Part shown: positions 1,422-7,313 of the stretch, piece after piece
Numbering within the stretch: the first letter of the stretch is position 1
Layout of the letters: every line of letters begins with the position of its first letter
Virus record (IMG/VR): IMGVR_UViG_2582580966_000020
Origin: a virus
Lineage: Duplodnaviria > Heunggongvirae > Uroviricota > Caudoviricetes
DNA length: 9,066 bases
Strand: one strand, 5' to 3'
Program-made: the position numbers and the translations under genes
The notes under the pieces: generated by a model
The model's input: the letters and a program-made list of their open reading frames with translations, nothing else
Database searches by the model: none
What the model was told of the DNA's origin: nothing

Positions 1422-3893
1422 TTAAAAATCAGCCTGATTCGGGATCAGTTTTTGCCAGATAACTGAAATGTATTTTGCCTGGTAACGGGCGTCATCAAGT
1501 GCATTATGGCGCTCACCTTCGAATGGAATAGCCGTTCTGGCATCGAAGTCTATGGCTTTCCCCAGCTCAACGATTGTGCGTACATCGCGATCGTTGTAGT
1601 AACGCCACGGGCAGGGGATCCCCTGCCGTTCGTATGAACGGCGCAAAATCGTGTTGTCGAAGTTGGCTCCATTTCCCCAGACCTGAACAAAAAATTCACC
1701 GGAGTTTTCGTCGATAAATTCCCGCAATTGTAACAGTGCATCATCTAACGGGATTTCATCGGTCATAATGGCAGACTGCGCTTCACGTGATTGCTTCAGC
1801 CACCTTTTAATGACGTCACGATCAATGACTCCGCCAGCAGTTTCCAGATCGATAGTCTTACTAAATTCCGGTCCCATATCTCCGGTTTGCGGATCGAAAA
1901 ATATTGCACCTATTGAGATAATCGGGGCATCAGGATTTTTTCCCATGGTTTCAAGGTCGATCATTAGATGGTCACACGTCCTGCTGGTGGATGTGATTTC
2001 TTGATGACCGTTCACCTTAATTGAGTGATCTGCCGTCTCGCCAGTTTCATTATCGCTATCGTGATGCTGATTGCCGCCAGTGTTCTCCTTGTGTGGATGT
2101 TCAGCGCCTTCCATTTCCTCCGGATTATCTTCCTGAACTTCAGGCTGATACTCTTCATCGAATGTTTCCTGGTATGTTGCGTCGCCCATTACCGCGCCAC
2201 AATCAGGGCAGTTGCCGCCGCCGGTCTGACCGCAGGCGGTGCAGACTTTTTCCGGTTCCTGTTGCGCTACTGGCTCAGGTTGTTTCGTTTCTGGCTCGTT
2301 TTGTTGCGTATTTGGGCTGTTTTGTTCCGCTTTCTGGTCGTTCTGTTCCGATTCTTGCTGGTTCTGGTTTACAGAATCGCGGGTCTGGTTCCCCTTAACC
2401 CATTTCGGATCATTCGGGTCGCTAATCCCTTCAACAAATTCACCACGTGATACTGCAAGCAGTTCATCGGCGTCAGGCTGGCTGATATTGGCTGCCTGCA
2501 TAATTTTGTTTACTTCGTCAGCGGTAACTTTTACTGACCCTGGTTGTGCGGTCGTGTCAGATGCACCAGTATTTTGTTGTGAACCTGAGTATGTACCGTT
2601 TTTGCAGGCGAAATATTCTTCTTTCGTGATTTCAGTAGCCCCAGCAGACAGCGCCTTATCCAGACCAGAAAGTTTGTTTGCGCGACCGTATTTTTCGCCA
2701 TCCTTGTCGGTGAAGAGGAAGTAGAACGGCCCCTCACGTTCTACAGATGGTTCGACTTCCACTTTGCATTCGGTTTTTTCGTTGCCCGGAATTGCCGTTT
2801 CCACTGCATCAGTTTCTGGTACTGGCGACGAGAGAGTATCAGTTGCGCTCTGATTTCTTCCTTCATCTTCAAACACGCCCTTTGTAGTCAGGTATTCAGT
2901 AATGTATTTGTTCAGTGCCACAGGGTCTTTGTGAATGTCGATCGGACGTTCACGGACAAGGCCAAAAATAGTCTGGCGGTCGTAGCGAAGGGCATCAGGC
3001 TGTTTGCGCATTGATGCCGAGATACGCTTCCAGTCTTCGCGGTCGTTGTCGATAACTTCATTTTTTGCCCAGCGATGGATGCTGCCGTCAATGTTTCCGG
3101 CATCCACATCACCAGGCCAGAGAGCGTAGGCCAGTTCGTCATCCAGTGTTTTCCATGTCTGCTTGTATTCGCGATGAATGGCAGCAATGACCGGGCTGAT
3201 TTTTCCTGTTGAATTTTCACTGTGCTGTTGATTGGCTCTGGCGCGGGCGAGATCAACAACAGACGTGTATTTTCCGGCTTCCTTGCGTTCACCTTCGCGA
3301 CGTTTTTTCCAGATGCGCATCTCTGCCTGAATTTCGGGCCATTTGGCACCAGGCTTACATTTATGCTTAACCCACCCGATGGCATGCAGCTTAAGCTCCG
3401 GATACATGGCGTTAACTTCTGGCATTTTCATCAACGCTTCAACGATATGTCCGTCGAATGTTGCCATGTCTTCCTGCAACAGTTCCTGCGCGCTAATCAC
3501 CATATCAACGGTGATGTTTTCACATGTGTCGAACTTAACCATGACAGCGTTCTGTACTTCAGGGGCCAGCTTGTCAAAAGTGACGTTCATCGGATCTGAT
3601 TCAGTCTCAACCGGGACAAAGGAAGCAGACTCCTCATCCCAGCGGTTTTCCTGCATATATTCAGCATCCCAGGAATCGAGGGCAGGGCGGGGTATACCGG
3701 GTTTATCCTCGCAGACAAGAAATTTATAAGCGCAGTCCTGAGCAGCCGGATAATGTTCCAGGAATTGCCAGTGAAATTTTGCGCGGGCGCGACGTTCATC
3801 ACCGGCTTCAATGGCAGTGGCTACAGCGACGGCACCTTCTTCCTTTATTGCCTGTTCGTCCGGAATGGCGGCGCAAATAAAGACTTTACTCAT
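1422..3893 (-). CDS. recE: RecE-like (exodeoxyribonuclease VIII family) mosaic protein, 823 aa: unknown N-terminal region, RecE-type Q/N/E-rich linker with CxxC-x7-CxxC zinc ribbon, C-terminal DnaQ-like DEDDh 3'-5' exonuclease domain
   Basis: Central segment (DADELLAVSRGEFVEGISDPNDPKWVKG...KQPEPVAQQEPEKVCTACGQTGGGNCPDCGAVMGDATYQETF, about 1971-2474) matches my recollection of the middle of E. coli K-12 RecE. C-terminal 182 aa (about 1425-1970) carry DEDDh motifs: MIDLETMG (D-x-E), WGNGANFD, HNALDD (H-x4-D). N-terminal 473 aa do not resemble the K-12 RecE N-terminus as I recall it. GAGG lies 9 nt upstream of the ATG. The symbol is given because of the linker homology; the catalytic domain is not the canonical RecE nuclease. 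Confidence 0.8.
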   Translation of the reverse strand: MSKVFICAAIPDEQAIKEEGAVAVATAIEAGDERRARAKFHWQFLEHYPAAQDCAYKFLVCEDKPGIPRPALDSWDAEYMQENRWDEESASFVPVETESDPMNVTFDKLAPEVQNAVMVKFDTCENITVDMVISAQELLQEDMATFDGHIVEALMKMPEVNAMYPELKLHAIGWVKHKCKPGAKWPEIQAEMRIWKKRREGERKEAGKYTSVVDLARARANQQHSENSTGKISPVIAAIHREYKQTWKTLDDELAYALWPGDVDAGNIDGSIHRWAKNEVIDNDREDWKRISASMRKQPDALRYDRQTIFGLVRERPIDIHKDPVALNKYITEYLTTKGVFEDEGRNQSATDTLSSPVPETDAVETAIPGNEKTECKVEVEPSVEREGPFYFLFTDKDGEKYGRANKLSGLDKALSAGATEITKEEYFACKNGTYSGSQQNTGASDTTAQPGSVKVTADEVNKIMQAANISQPDADELLAVSRGEFVEGISDPNDPKWVKGNQTRDSVNQNQQESEQNDQKAEQNSPNTQQNEPETKQPEPVAQQEPEKVCTACGQTGGGNCPDCGAVMGDATYQETFDEEYQPEVQEDNPEEMEGAEHPHKENTGGNQHHDSDNETGETADHSIKVNGHQEITSTSRTCDHLMIDLETMGKNPDAPIISIGAIFFDPQTGDMGPEFSKTIDLETAGGVIDRDVIKRWLKQSREAQSAIMTDEIPLDDALLQLREFIDENSGEFFVQVWGNGANFDNTILRRSYERQGIPCPWRYYNDRDVRTIVELGKAIDFDARTAIPFEGERHNALDDARYQAKYISVIWQKLIPNQADF

Positions 3894-3985: not shown

Positions 3986-4177
3986 TTAAAGACCTGCCGG
4001 GATTTCGTTATTATCCTGGTGAATAACTTTATCGACCGGGTAACAGTTACCGGGAATTTTCTGTTCGGTTGCTGCAGTCACACACTCCTGCATTGTCCTG
4101 TGAACACTGACTGCAATATCAACTGGCTCTCCGGAAACAAGAAAAACTGTCAGAACAAGTGCAAATGCTGTATTCAT
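3986..4177 (-). CDS. Small hypothetical protein with N-terminal signal-peptide-like segment and two Cys (likely exported), about 63 aa
   Basis: In-frame part of ORF 3986-4231. The Met at 4175-4177 forms an ATGA stop/start overlap with the upstream small gene, with AAGG 9 nt upstream. MNTAFALVLTVFLVSG is hydrophobic, followed by a polar region with C...C. Alternative starts at 4186 and 4231 cannot be excluded. Confidence 0.45.
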   Translation of the reverse strand: MNTAFALVLTVFLVSGEPVDIAVSVHRTMQECVTAATEQKIPGNCYPVDKVIHQDNNEIPAGL

Positions 4178-4362
4178 TGCCAGCATCCTTTTTGTATCGG
4201 ACGTAAACGGGCCAGCATTGAAAGAATGCATATTTTATTTAATAGCTCCCGTTCGTGTTTTCTCTTGTTAATGGCATCTTCAGTAAATACAGGGTTACTG
4301 ATAGTGACACCAATTTCAAAACAACCTTCAGACGTATTAATGTTTGGTAATAACGTTTCCAT
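4174..4362 (-). CDS. Small hypothetical protein, about 62 aa (early-left operon, kil/racC-like position)
   Basis: Part of ORF 4174-4467. ATG at 4360-4362 is preceded by GAGGA with 7-nt spacing. Stop TGA overlaps the start of the downstream small gene (ATGA). The longer 97-aa form would need a GTG start without a clear RBS. Confidence 0.4.
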   Translation of the reverse strand: METLLPNINTSEGCFEIGVTISNPVFTEDAINKRKHERELLNKICILSMLARLRPIQKGCWQ

Positions 4363-4923
4363 TATCGCGTCCTCAACAATGAATTTTGTGATGCGGTGCC
4401 TGGTGCCTCCAGGTGACGTTAACCAGTTAACAATTAACGCCGGATACAGAGAATCCACCCATAACACTGTTTTTGGTTTTAACTGTTCCGCGTGCGCTCA
4501 GCCGCATTCACCACATCACAAAATTCACTTTAAAAAGGGCGGCAGAGCAGTCACGGAGTAAAACTGATACCGCCAAACGTCACCAGAAAATTGATAACAG
4601 AGGGCGTTGCAGCGGGGTTGTCACTTAAGCGTATGGTCAACCTGACAACTCGGTGTCCTCAACGGGGAAGAAATACCCCCGCCATACTTACCGCCGCGCC
4701 ATTTCGCGGATTGCCACAACCGGAAACGCACGGTCGACGAAAATTTAACGACAGGCTATCTATGAACCAGCTACCTCGCCGGGCGCTTTCGCGTTATGGT
4801 CTGACTTTTCAGGGAAATATCCTTTCAGTAAACTGTCAGTGCCGGATGCTCACCCGTGTCCGGCGCACGCACTCCACCTCACCCGTGGAGAACTCCTTAA
4901 TCACCAACCCTCAGGAGGGTGAA

Positions 4924-5199: not shown

Positions 5200-5509
5200 T
5201 GCTTTTTGTTGCAAAGTAATTTTCAAGGGGTTCTATTCGAATCCCTTTCTTTTTCATTAACAAGCCAAACCCCTTATCAATGATGTCCATTAGATCCAGG
5301 AAGTATTTTTCATGTAAATCCTGGTTATCAGAGAGCTGCTTCTCTTCGTACAGCCCGATAAAGGCTCGGCGTACGTTACCGGATATATTGTCGATGGTTT
5401 CTTTTTCTACGGTACTCAGGTCAAGAGTCGCCAGTTGAGAGCGAACCACATTCGATGCCATTTCCTGGAATGGTACTGGTAAATCTTTAAATTCCATCGT
5501 CAACCTCAT
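5177..5509 (-). CDS. Hypothetical 110-aa protein (early-left operon; AT-rich; 3' end overlaps the convergent plus-strand gene by 23 bp)
   Basis: ORF track 110 aa. Start ATG 5507-5509 overlaps the stop of the upstream gene (TGATG coupling). An alternative in-frame ATG at 5497 has GAGG 6 nt upstream. No recognisable family. Confidence 0.6.
   Translation of the reverse strand: MRLTMEFKDLPVPFQEMASNVVRSQLATLDLSTVEKETIDNISGNVRRAFIGLYEEKQLSDNQDLHEKYFLDLMDIIDKGFGLLMKKKGIRIEPLENYFATKSINSFDSK
5225..5254 (+). terminator. Rho-independent terminator for the plus-strand 91-aa gene
   Basis: AAGGGGTTC (5225-5233), loop TATTC, GAATCCCTT (5239-5247): 9-bp stem with one G-U pair, followed by TCTTTTTC. On the minus strand the hairpin is not followed by a U-tract, so it is directional. 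Confidence 0.5.
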
Positions 5510-5742
5510 CAGTCAGTGTTTCTGGTTAACCAGCGACGCGCGCCAGCTTCAGTTTTAAACGTTTTGCTTCTGGTATATGTCATCGCGGTAAACGTGCCGT
5601 CCTGGTTGGGAAACACGCCGCATACCAGAGATTCGTTGTTGCCAAGCTCGATAGTATCCATGCTGACCTCATTTCCCCTTAACGCCGGGGTAGCGGAACA
5701 AAAACCTGCTGCATAGTTATTAAAGTTGAACCCTGCCGTCAT
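5509..5742 (-). CDS. Small prophage protein, DUF1391-like (YdaF/YdfA-like core of about 50 aa from the internal Met at 5661), first gene downstream of PL
   Basis: C-terminal 50 aa (MDTIELGNNESLVCGVFPNQDGTFTAMTYTRSKTFKTEAGARRWLTRNTD) match my recollection of the E. coli Rac/Qin YdaF/YdfA small proteins. The internal ATG at 5659-5661 has GAGG 5 nt upstream. The ATG at 5742 (full 77-aa ORF) has GAGG 9 nt upstream. The true start is uncertain. Confidence 0.6.
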   Translation of the reverse strand: MTAGFNFNNYAAGFCSATPALRGNEVSMDTIELGNNESLVCGVFPNQDGTFTAMTYTRSKTFKTEAGARRWLTRNTD

Positions 5743-5842
5743 GTTCTTACGCCTCGGGCTGGCTACTTAACCCCTGACCACTGCCTGGTAACTCGAGGTA
5801 TTGCCCTGTATTGTGTGGGACGGGATGGGTTGGTATGGGAAA

Positions 5843-5906
5843 ACTATAGGAAATGCCTAATTACTTGTCAATAGGCTATGCCTAATAATTTGGGCGCAAC
5901 CTAATA
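5843..5906 (-). promoter_or_regulatory. Left operator/promoter (OL/PL-like): leftward sigma70 promoter with repressor operator half-sites
   Basis: On the minus strand: -35 TTGACA (plus coordinates 5866-5871), 17-bp spacer, -10 TATAGT (5843-5848). Operator palindrome TAGGCTATGCCTA at 5872-5884, imperfect TAGGAAATGCCTA at 5847-5859, further GCCTAAT/ACCTAAT half-sites at 5855, 5880 and 5899. The same motif family is found at OR. Confidence 0.55.
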
Positions 5907-5979
5907 GGTGATGGTTTGTGGGAGAGGTAGTAGGAGTTAACTAACGGGAACTAGGAATTTCCCGTCGGACCATATAAGT

Positions 5980-6456
5980 TTAAGTTCCTGTCTTGGTGAT
6001 GTTCTGGCTTTTCCGTTTTGATTCTTGATTTTTCAGATAGTTAGCTACCTTCATTTCCATTGCGGCAATGTAGGCGCGAACGTCATAATCAACCCAACTA
6101 GGCTCCGTAGCATTTCCAGATAAGATGAAAGCCACAATTGCTTTTTTTTCATCAGAGGCGGCTTGATAAAGGCTGTTTATGTCTAAAAGTTCACTTTTTG
6201 TATCTGAAGTGGATGGGGTTGGTATGGGGTATTCGTTAAGCCCCCAATGCTCTGGACCAACCACATCAGAAAAGAAACGCCATAGTTCTGGAAGTTTGTC
6301 TTTACTTATCGAACCTTTCTTAATCCAGTCATGGATTGATGGTGGTTGGACTTTGAAATGACGTGCGATTTCCGCCTTTGATTTGACGGCTCCTGATGCA
6401 ATTTTTTTGTTAATGGCCTGCTCTATCGCTCGGCCTAAGTCTTTACCACTAAGCAT
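5980..6456 (-). CDS. racR: Prophage repressor, RacR-like (CI-type immunity repressor), 158 aa
   Basis: ORF 158 aa with an HTH-like segment (SKAEIARHFKVQPPSIHDWIKKG). Flanked on both sides by operator clusters and divergent from the ydaS/ydaT genes, the arrangement of Rac racR-ydaS-ydaT. AGGAG lies about 9 nt upstream of the ATG at 6456. Confidence 0.85.
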   Translation of the reverse strand: MLSGKDLGRAIEQAINKKIASGAVKSKAEIARHFKVQPPSIHDWIKKGSISKDKLPELWRFFSDVVGPEHWGLNEYPIPTPSTSDTKSELLDINSLYQAASDEKKAIVAFILSGNATEPSWVDYDVRAYIAAMEMKVANYLKNQESKRKSQNITKTGT

Positions 6457-6485
6457 TGCTTAATAGTCTCCTATGCGCATCGCGT

Positions 6486-6553
6486 TAGGCAATCCCTACT
6501 CTCGATGTATTAGGCATAGCCTATTGACAATTTCATTAGGCTAAGCCTAATAT
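6486..6553 (+). promoter_or_regulatory. Right operator/promoter (OR/PR-like) for ydaS-ydaT-replication operon
   Basis: Three operators at 25-26 bp centre spacing: TAGGCAATCCCTA (6486-6498), TAGGCATAGCCTA (6511-6523), TAGGCTAAGCCTA (6537-6549). -35 TTGACA at 6524-6529, 18-bp spacer, -10 TAATAT at 6548-6553. The third operator overlaps the -10. Confidence 0.6.
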
Positions 6554-6580
6554 TGTTGCGTGTTTTTTGGAGTTCATTCG

Positions 6581-6904
6581 ATGAAAAAAGATAACTATTC
6601 ATTCAAACGAGCTTGTGCTGTTGTCGGTGGGCAATCAGCAATGGCTAGGCTTTTAGGTGTATCTCCTCCAAGCGTAAATCAATGGATCAAAGGTGTACGT
6701 CAGTTACCTGCTGAGAGATGTCCTGCGATTGAACGAGCAACAAAAGGTGGTGTCCTGTGTGAAGAACTTCGTCCTGATGTTGATTGGACATACTTACGAC
6801 GCTCGTCATGTTATTCGCAGAATATGTCGATGAAGCAACCAAATGACGAAAACGATCATACCCGAAGCATCAAGAGGCAAATGATTCATGAAAATCAAAC
6901 ATGA
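6581..6904 (+). CDS. ydaS: Cro-like HTH regulator, YdaS family
   Basis: MKKDNYSFKRACAVVGGQSAMARLLGVSPPSVNQWIKGVRQLPAERCPAIERAT matches the YdaS family as I recall it. ATG at 6581 has GGAG 8 nt upstream and lies just downstream of the predicted PR start. The ORF-track GTG at 6560 would sit at or before the transcription start. Confidence 0.85.
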   Translation: MKKDNYSFKRACAVVGGQSAMARLLGVSPPSVNQWIKGVRQLPAERCPAIERATKGGVLCEELRPDVDWTYLRRSSCYSQNMSMKQPNDENDHTRSIKRQMIHENQT

Positions 6905-7313
6905 GCACATCCGCATGGCGATGAATGCCTGGGCATACCCTGATGGTGAGAAAGTTCCTGCAGCTGAAATAGCCCGGACTTATTTCGAACTGGGGATGAC
7001 GTTCCCTGAACTGTACGACGACAGCCATCCGGAAGCCCTGGCCCGTAATACCCAGAAAATTTTCCGTTGGCTGGATAAAGACACCCCTGATGCTGTTGAA
7101 AAAATGCAGGCTCTGTTACCGGCGATCGAAAAGGCGATGCCGCCTTTGCTGGTGGCCCGTATGCGCAGCCACAGTTCTGAATATTACCGTGAGATCGTCG
7201 AACGGAGGGATCGGCTGGGGAAGGATGTCGATGATTTTGTTGCGTCAGCGGTTGTTTTGTATGACCAGATGAATCGCGGCGGCCCGGCAGGGAATGCTGT
7301 GGTGATGCACTAA
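6888..7313 (+). CDS. ydaT: YdaT-family protein (toxic partner of the RacR-controlled ydaS-ydaT pair), 141 aa, divergent
   Basis: Starts MKIKHEHI and ends VVMH, like K-12 YdaT as recalled, with similar length. Overlaps the ydaS 3' end by 17 bp. The middle of the protein differs from K-12. Confidence 0.75.
   Translation: MKIKHEHIRMAMNAWAYPDGEKVPAAEIARTYFELGMTFPELYDDSHPEALARNTQKIFRWLDKDTPDAVEKMQALLPAIEKAMPPLLVARMRSHSSEYYREIVERRDRLGKDVDDFVASAVVLYDQMNRGGPAGNAVVMH

Follow-up and report, generated by a model that had tools for sequence, protein, structure and literature searches.

A mirrored operator-promoter unit around racR

The 9,066-nt stretch of DNA analysed here, referred to below as the window, carries the repressor gene racR and, divergent from it, a ydaS-like gene coding for a Cro-type helix-turn-helix (HTH) protein (Table 1). 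A 1.6-kb stretch around racR is 100% identical to several E. coli chromosomes, in which it is annotated as racR, an HTH protein and a YdaT-family protein in a lambdoid prophage adjoining ompW; judged by its sequence, the window is an E. coli Rac-like prophage. Its RacR matches the NCBIfam equivalog NF049929 with 244.6 bits (cut-off 200) and is 90% identical over 158 aa to RacR of E. coli K-12, the N-terminal HTH half being nearly invariant, in agreement with the Rac-type immunity region proposed in an earlier note on this DNA. A Pfam search with RacR yielded no family match, so that an S24 peptidase domain went undetected, and a sequence search found no relative of solved structure.

The product of the ydaS-like gene is 85% identical to K-12 YdaS. 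YdaT, encoded by the next gene, matches Pfam YdaT_toxin and is just 31% identical to its K-12 counterpart, and therefore represents a different CII-type allele. The fall in identity to K-12 from RacR (90%) and YdaS (85%) to YdaT (31%) places a mosaic joint at the 3′ end of ydaS (window 6581-7313). On the other side of racR, a DicF RNA (4537-4588, minus strand; Rfam RF00039, 76.7 bits) precedes a DicB ORF (4174-4467, minus strand; Pfam DicB), so that in place of the kilR of K-12 Rac the PL-side operon contains a dicF-dicB division-inhibitor module of the Qin type. DicF was the sole Rfam match in the window, and no RNA family was found within 5843-6553. An 823-aa “exonuclease” ORF (1422-3893, minus strand) comes directly after xis, with none of recT, ralR and rcbA of K-12 Rac in between.

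Direct reading and a repeat finder show that segment 5865-5887 (TTGTCAATAGGCTATGCCTAATA) is 100% complementary to segment 6508-6530 (TATTAGGCATAGCCTATTGACAA), the two arms being 620 nt apart. No other exact inverted repeat with separate arms in the window is as long as this 23-nt pair; the maximum per sequence averaged 12.6 nt (sd 1.0) over 200 dinucleotide-preserving shuffles and did not exceed 17 nt in any of them. Each arm is composed of one base, the 17-bp operator ATTAGGCATAGCCTATT, the final TT of which opens TTGACA, and GACAA. With up to 2 mismatches allowed, the window has 10 copies of the motif TAGGCNNNGCCTA where 2.16 would be expected, a count that none of the 200 shuffles reached. 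Seven of the ten copies fall into two clusters flanking racR (5847-5903 and 6450-6549). Three copies are perfect, namely OL2, OR2 and OR1.

A promoter scan of 5400-7000 returned just two sigma-70-like sites, each of which uses the TTGACA of one arm: a minus-strand promoter at 5871..5843 (TTGACA-17-TATAGT, 11/12 matches) and a plus-strand promoter at 6524..6553 (TTGACA-18-TAATAT, 10/12 matches), with 5843 and 6553 as the outer edges of the two -10 boxes. The predicted PL and PR thus share the layout operator/-35/operator/-10, mirrored around racR, with operator centres 25 or 26 bp apart; as in lambda-type architecture, the repressor gene lies between two early promoters that face outward and are both overlapped by operators. 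The earlier note had proposed an exact reverse complementarity of the two segments, a TTGACA box adjoining a TAGGC-N3-GCCTA operator in each of them, and the same operator-promoter unit in opposite orientation on either side of the repressor gene. The repeat finder and the shuffles bear out the first proposal, and the promoter and motif scans the other two.

Table 1. Features of the racR immunity region (window coordinates)
Feature	Position	Strand	Basis or remarks
Predicted PL -10 box TATAGT	5843..5848	-	Promoter scan; start site predicted near 5836
OL1 core TAGGAAATGCCTA, 1 mismatch	5847..5859		In PL spacer, 2-nt overlap with -10 box
Left arm of inverted repeat (OL2, -35 box, one flanking base per side)	5865..5887		Repeat finder, shuffles
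Predicted PL -35 box TTGACA	5866..5871	-	Within left 23-nt arm
OL2 perfect core TAGGCTATGCCTA	5872..5884		0 mismatches; abuts PL -35 box
Doubtful third left site TGGGCGCAACCTA	5891..5905		Core 5891-5903 with 2 mismatches; 19 bp from OL2, not 25-26
racR, repressor gene	5980..6456	-	158 aa; RefSeq annotation racR
OR4 weak operator TAAGCATTGCTTA, 2 mismatches	6450..6462		Spans racR ATG (6454-6456)
OR3 operator TAGGCAATCCCTA, 1 mismatch	6486..6498		racR promoter region; counterpart of the -41/-42 site of divergent loci
Right arm of exact 23-nt inverted repeat	6508..6530		Repeat finder
OR2 perfect operator TAGGCATAGCCTA	6511..6523		Abuts PR -35 box
PR (PydaS)	6524..6553	+	-35 TTGACA 6524-6529, 18-nt spacer, -10 TAATAT 6548-6553
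OR1 perfect operator TAGGCTAAGCCTA	6537..6549		In PR spacer, 2-nt overlap with -10 box
ydaS-like gene (Cro-type HTH), first in PR operon	6581..6904	+	Pfam YdaS_toxin, P22_Cro; RefSeq coordinates

No intrinsic terminator was found between racR and PL in the window. Just past the predicted PL start, the minus-strand transcript would be C-rich and G-poor (window 5800-5849, plus-strand GC skew +0.58), and an exact 13-nt direct repeat, GGGTTGGTATGGG, is found at 5827-5839 and again inside racR at 6216-6228. A Rho-dependent terminator has been reported in racR, and the C-rich tract and the repeat may be rut-like sites connected with it.

The right-hand operators and their number across RacR loci

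Much of the right half has been described in K-12 Rac. Three GCCTAA/TTAGGC repeats were noted in the K-12 racR-ydaS intergenic region, on which RacR forms three complexes in EMSA and shows ChIP enrichment (Krishnamurthi 2017, PMC5700373). Primer extension located PydaS, with -35 TTGACA and -10 TAATAT, and mutagenesis of the -10 box confirmed it (Wisniewska 2022, PMC9638921). In the same study, a monomer motif, ATTAGGC, and an operator consensus, (T/A)TAGGC-n3-GCCTA(T/A), were derived from DNase I footprints of RacR, the lowest RacR concentration tested already protected the ydaST promoter, and one operator was found to overlap the ATG of racR, the promoter of which is leaderless (PMC9638921). 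RacR is known to repress ydaST in K-12, and later work described “four inverted repeats” and a RacR octamer in size-exclusion chromatography, which the same research group read as four dimers at OR (PMC11014345).

Alignment with K-12 shows that all of the published right-side elements are kept in the window, including identical PR hexamers, the operator consensus TAGGC-n3-GCCTA and the same four OR sites at -93, -67, -42 and -6, and a divergent ydaS/ydaT operon lies behind PydaS, as expected of a Rac-type locus. The footprint-derived consensus is found at 5847-5884 and 6486-6549 in the form of three perfect sites and two with one mismatch. The recognition sequence deduced in the earlier note from the letters alone, TAGGC-N3-GCCTA, is thus the one obtained from the footprints of K-12 RacR, and its right early promoter is the primer-extension-mapped PydaS. 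As the operator consensus, PR and OR had been published for K-12 between 2017 and 2022, the right half and the recognition sequence are rediscoveries, and it cannot be claimed that the latter was first defined here. The -10 boxes of K-12 PracR2 (AGTAAG) and PracR3 (GAGAAT) are changed to TCGAGA and GAGACT in the window (6463-6500), and the strength of the racR promoters may therefore differ from that in K-12.

Operator number was compared in the racR upstream regions of loci L004-L135. Among the matches listed, four OR sites at -93, -67, -42 and -6 from the racR ATG are present in 45/45 non-redundant contexts of E. coli-type loci, and three sites at about -66, -41 and -6 in 18/18 non-redundant contexts of divergent loci; the site across the ATG (-6, OR4) is therefore found in 63/63 upstream contexts. 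OL has two sites throughout the family. A third left site is represented just by a half-site, ACCTAAT, which is kept in E. coli-type loci and absent from divergent ones, and a conserved third left operator was accordingly rejected. The “tripartite OL/OR” of the earlier note therefore stands in part: three OR sites do occur in divergent loci, but there are four in E. coli-type loci, and OL consists of two operators plus a degenerate, off-register half-site rather than three operators per side. One of the loci, L006 (JARKOR010000130.1), has an E. coli Rac immunity region on a 5.2-kb contig assigned by its label to a metagenome-assembled genome of Candidatus Nanosynbacter; its RacR is 90% identical and its operators are the same, and it is probably a case of binning contamination.

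A predicted leftward promoter downstream of racR

The published K-12 work concerns the racR-ydaS intergenic region only, and comparison with the window adds the left side. We found no published description of operators or a promoter downstream of Rac racR, although an older account may exist; the RacR regulon, including the “ydaFG” operon, has been called uncharacterised (PMC11014345). For comparison, twelve loci were picked from a one-genome-per-species collection by RacR protein similarity alone, and eleven of them were scanned. In seven of the eleven (four E. coli-type loci, Mixta, Proteus and one metagenome-assembled genome), a pair of operators 25 bp apart is located about 90-180 bp past racR, and in two Achromobacter loci the pair lies 1.6-2.3 kb past it. 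A -10-like hexamer comes after the paired sites, which read [ATTAGGC-N3-GCCTA]TTGACA-N5-[ATTAGGC-N3-GCCTA]. Outside the pair, the flanks of the five non-E. coli-type loci that have it cannot be aligned; the cassette downstream of racR extends to homologues of 31-79% identity with such flanks, and the OL2 sequence itself, TAGGCATAGCCTATTGACA, is kept downstream of racR homologues of 56-79% identity. Comparison with other Rac-like prophages, which the earlier note had put forward as a check, thus shows that the operator/-35/operator/-10 cassette recurs downstream of racR.

A scan of IMG/VR with TAGGCNNNGCCTATTGACA gave at least 120 loci, and 101 of those listed encode a RacR homologue. Among the matches listed, all 167 operator/-35 units are positioned in one of two ways with respect to racR, 99 downstream and co-directional and 68 upstream and divergent, and the mirror arrangement is kept in 66 pairs, as it is in divergent loci. 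We also examined 51 non-redundant PL contexts, chosen by OL2 plus the -35 box alone and not by OL1. Among the contexts listed, an OL1 operator follows OL2 in 51/51, offset by 25 nt (by 24 nt in two) and with at most one mismatch in 50 of the 51 and two in the remaining one; for any one sequence, an operator would occur at a given offset by chance with a probability of about 3e-5. In most PL contexts, divergent ones among them, a -10-like hexamer (TATAGT, TAATAT or TAACAT) is found at a constant position, and a few outliers have no clear one. As a counterpoint, the OL1 mismatch in the window falls in a core half-site (TAGGA). In one divergent RacR locus (L025), an intrinsic terminator with a 9-bp stem and a T run (3850-3871, minus strand) precedes OL2 by about 20 bp, as would be expected if a new transcription unit started there.

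Published expression data point in the same direction. When RacR was lowered, transcripts of ydaG, ydaF, kilR, racC and further leftward genes rose 40- to more than 70-fold, within a published range of 40-100-fold for leftward genes, while racR mRNA went down, and silencing of racR by CRISPRi gave the same rise of the leftward genes; a rise of leftward genes accompanied by a fall of racR mRNA is better accounted for by a separate RacR-repressed promoter than by read-through from racR. The start-site table of Kim 2012 for a K-12 lysogen includes a leaderless racR start (1418265, NC_000913.2) and none at the predicted PL, which is uninformative for PL, since this promoter would be repressed in a lysogen. 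The table also contains weak minus-strand starts at 1417782, 1418057 and 1418100 (NC_000913.2), within or just after racR and assigned to ydaG, transcripts from which would traverse OL. Overall, the conservation of the cassette strongly supports the predicted PL and OL as a real leftward promoter and operator.

Interpretation and possible origin of the mirrored unit

The locus is very probably the immunity switch of a Rac-type lambdoid prophage, with the same type of cassette at both of its outward-facing early promoters. RacR dimers would bind 17-bp palindromes of the form ATTAGGC-N3-GCCTAAT. At each promoter, one operator would abut the -35 box (OL2 on the left, OR2 on the right, which together with this box make up the 23-nt arms), and a second (OL1 or OR1) would fill the spacer and overlap the first two bases of the -10 box; with operators so placed, bound RacR would be expected to block RNA polymerase at both PR and PL. 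PR would then drive rightward transcription of ydaS, ydaT and the replication genes, and PL leftward transcription of a DUF1391 gene, dicF-dicB, the exonuclease gene, xis and int. The weaker sites OR3 and OR4 would act on the promoters of racR itself and provide autoregulation; OR4, which spans the start codon of the leaderless racR, is the probable site of autorepression. By analogy with K-12, RacR is expected to bind the right-hand sites of the window and to repress PR, and the sequence leads us to expect promoter activity at PL and RacR binding at OL. Cooperativity between adjacent RacR dimers is plausible, and looping between OL and OR over about 640 bp by the RacR octamer is possible; the OL2-OR2 centre distance is 639 bp in the window and ranges from 614 bp to 2.6 kb in relatives.

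It could be argued that the left copy is no promoter at all, that the leftward genes are reached by racR transcripts reading past Rho-dependent termination, and that the left operators are auxiliary, serving in looping or as a roadblock. Shashni et al. indeed attributed the silencing of kil to trac, a Rho-dependent terminator located in racR, and its expression to transcripts from racR reading past trac (PMC4150792), and both the C-rich, G-poor minus-strand tract past the left sites and the lack of a PL start in the lysogen table would fit such a scheme. It is nevertheless improbable in view of the 11/12 sigma-70 match of PL, the constant position of the -10-like hexamer in most lineages, including those with unalignable flanks, the intrinsic terminator just upstream of the left unit in L025, and the increase of leftward transcripts both when racR mRNA declines and when CRISPRi blocks racR. 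Still less credible is a chance resemblance between two AT-rich promoter regions: a consensus -35 box in both arms would contribute to it, yet the shuffles produced at most 17 nt of the 23, none of the 200 matched the motif count, and the arrangement is kept in dozens of loci, so that the shuffle controls and the 51 PL contexts together can be said to refute this explanation, to which we assign practically no weight.

The identity of the arms could also mark them as a recombination substrate, maintained by gene conversion or used for inversion of the racR segment. A length of 23 nt is near the minimum for homologous recombination, and the E. coli-type OR has one operator/-35 unit more than its divergent relatives, with that unit being equal to OL2. 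Among the matches listed, however, the flank is of the PR type in 68/68 units upstream of racR and of the PL type in 71/71 units downstream, and in the 66 pairs, variation in the spacer and flanks of OL2 is not accompanied by matching variation at OR2; in K-12, moreover, one spacer base distinguishes the two arms. On these grounds, inversion of the racR segment was rejected (0/139 units with swapped flanks among the matches listed), as was ongoing gene conversion (no co-variation in the 66 listed pairs), and recombination between the arms is therefore a very unlikely reason for their identity. About 18 of the 23 arm positions are constrained by operator half-sites or the -35 box, and in all likelihood the identity results mainly from these elements constraining the same bases on both sides; a shared ancestry, with the OR2 unit derived from the OL2 unit, may have contributed further. 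The absence of both OL2/OR2 co-variation and an inverted racR segment thus argues for shared constraint, possibly combined with shared origin, and not for active recombination. As far as can be judged from the sequences compared, the exact 23-nt identity is not itself a conserved feature: among the IMG/VR matches listed, the arm sequence of the window is present on both sides in about 14 of the 66 mirror pairs, and in the remaining pairs the arms also differ in the operator outer flank or the 3-nt spacer.

The origin of the right arm can be addressed by comparing the two types of OR. E. coli-type loci have at -42 a site (TAGGGATTGCCTA) that agrees in position and spacer with the one at -41 in divergent loci (TAGGAATTGCCTA). 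The PR -35 box adjoins the -41 site in the divergent loci; the E. coli-type -42 site is without it. In E. coli-type loci the box belongs to the extra -67 unit, which is the same as OL2 (TAGGCATAGCCTATTGACA); lineages with RacR 56-79% identical have this sequence at PL, too. From these correspondences it can reasonably be inferred that the PL unit was duplicated into OR in inverted orientation, the alternative being that the OR unit was deleted in the other lineages. A fuller version, which we regard as possible but rather doubtful, is that the E. coli-type OR2 and its -35 box are an inverted copy of the PL unit inserted into a three-operator OR, with the octamer bridging OL1-OL2 and OR1-OR2. 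If this is true, the insertion created the four-operator OR and pushed the old OR2 off the -35 box, and a loop of about 640 bp would enclose racR alone, with OR3 and OR4 left for autoregulation; the octamer would then span OL and OR, in contrast to the published view that it occupies the four OR sites.

The closest known systems include RacR/PydaS of K-12 Rac, from which the window differs in the position of the prophage next to ompW, in the YdaT allele and in having dicF-dicB in place of kilR. As in lambda OL/OR, the repressor gene lies between outward-facing early promoters and multiple palindromic operators are about 2.4 helical turns apart; both systems also have a divergent Cro-like gene, a leaderless repressor mRNA and a repressor that is octameric in solution. 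Unlike in lambda, the repressor is no CI homologue and showed no self-cleaving S24 domain of the CI/LexA type; there are two operators (plus a half-site) and four in Rac against three and three in lambda, OL and OR are separated by about 640 bp as opposed to 2.3 kb, and YdaS is reported not to repress racR, in contrast to the lambda switch (PMC9638921). In PaaR2/YdaS of CP-933P, with promoters PR933P, PRM933P and PL933P, a GFP reporter showed that PL is repressed by the repressor (Jurenas 2021, PMC8630535). CP-933P differs in repressor specificity (consensus GTTTAGTAA repeats), in having three reported OL operators, and in harbouring a toxin-antitoxin pair within the repressor operon.

The view of the locus as an ordinary lambda-style immunity switch, with a core already published and a left half that is an expected addition, is well supported. 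Its import beyond annotation is small and consists in coordinates for the probable PL, OL1 and OL2 of Rac-type prophages, and it suggests as a question whether the RacR octamer loops OL to OR. For the family, operator/-35/operator/-10 constitutes a building block placed on either side of racR throughout, and the derepression of kilR or dicB-dicF, ralR, recET and xis-int upon RacR depletion can be read as direct control of PL rather than read-through. If PL works as proposed, the dicF-dicB division-inhibitor module of this prophage would fall under RacR control.
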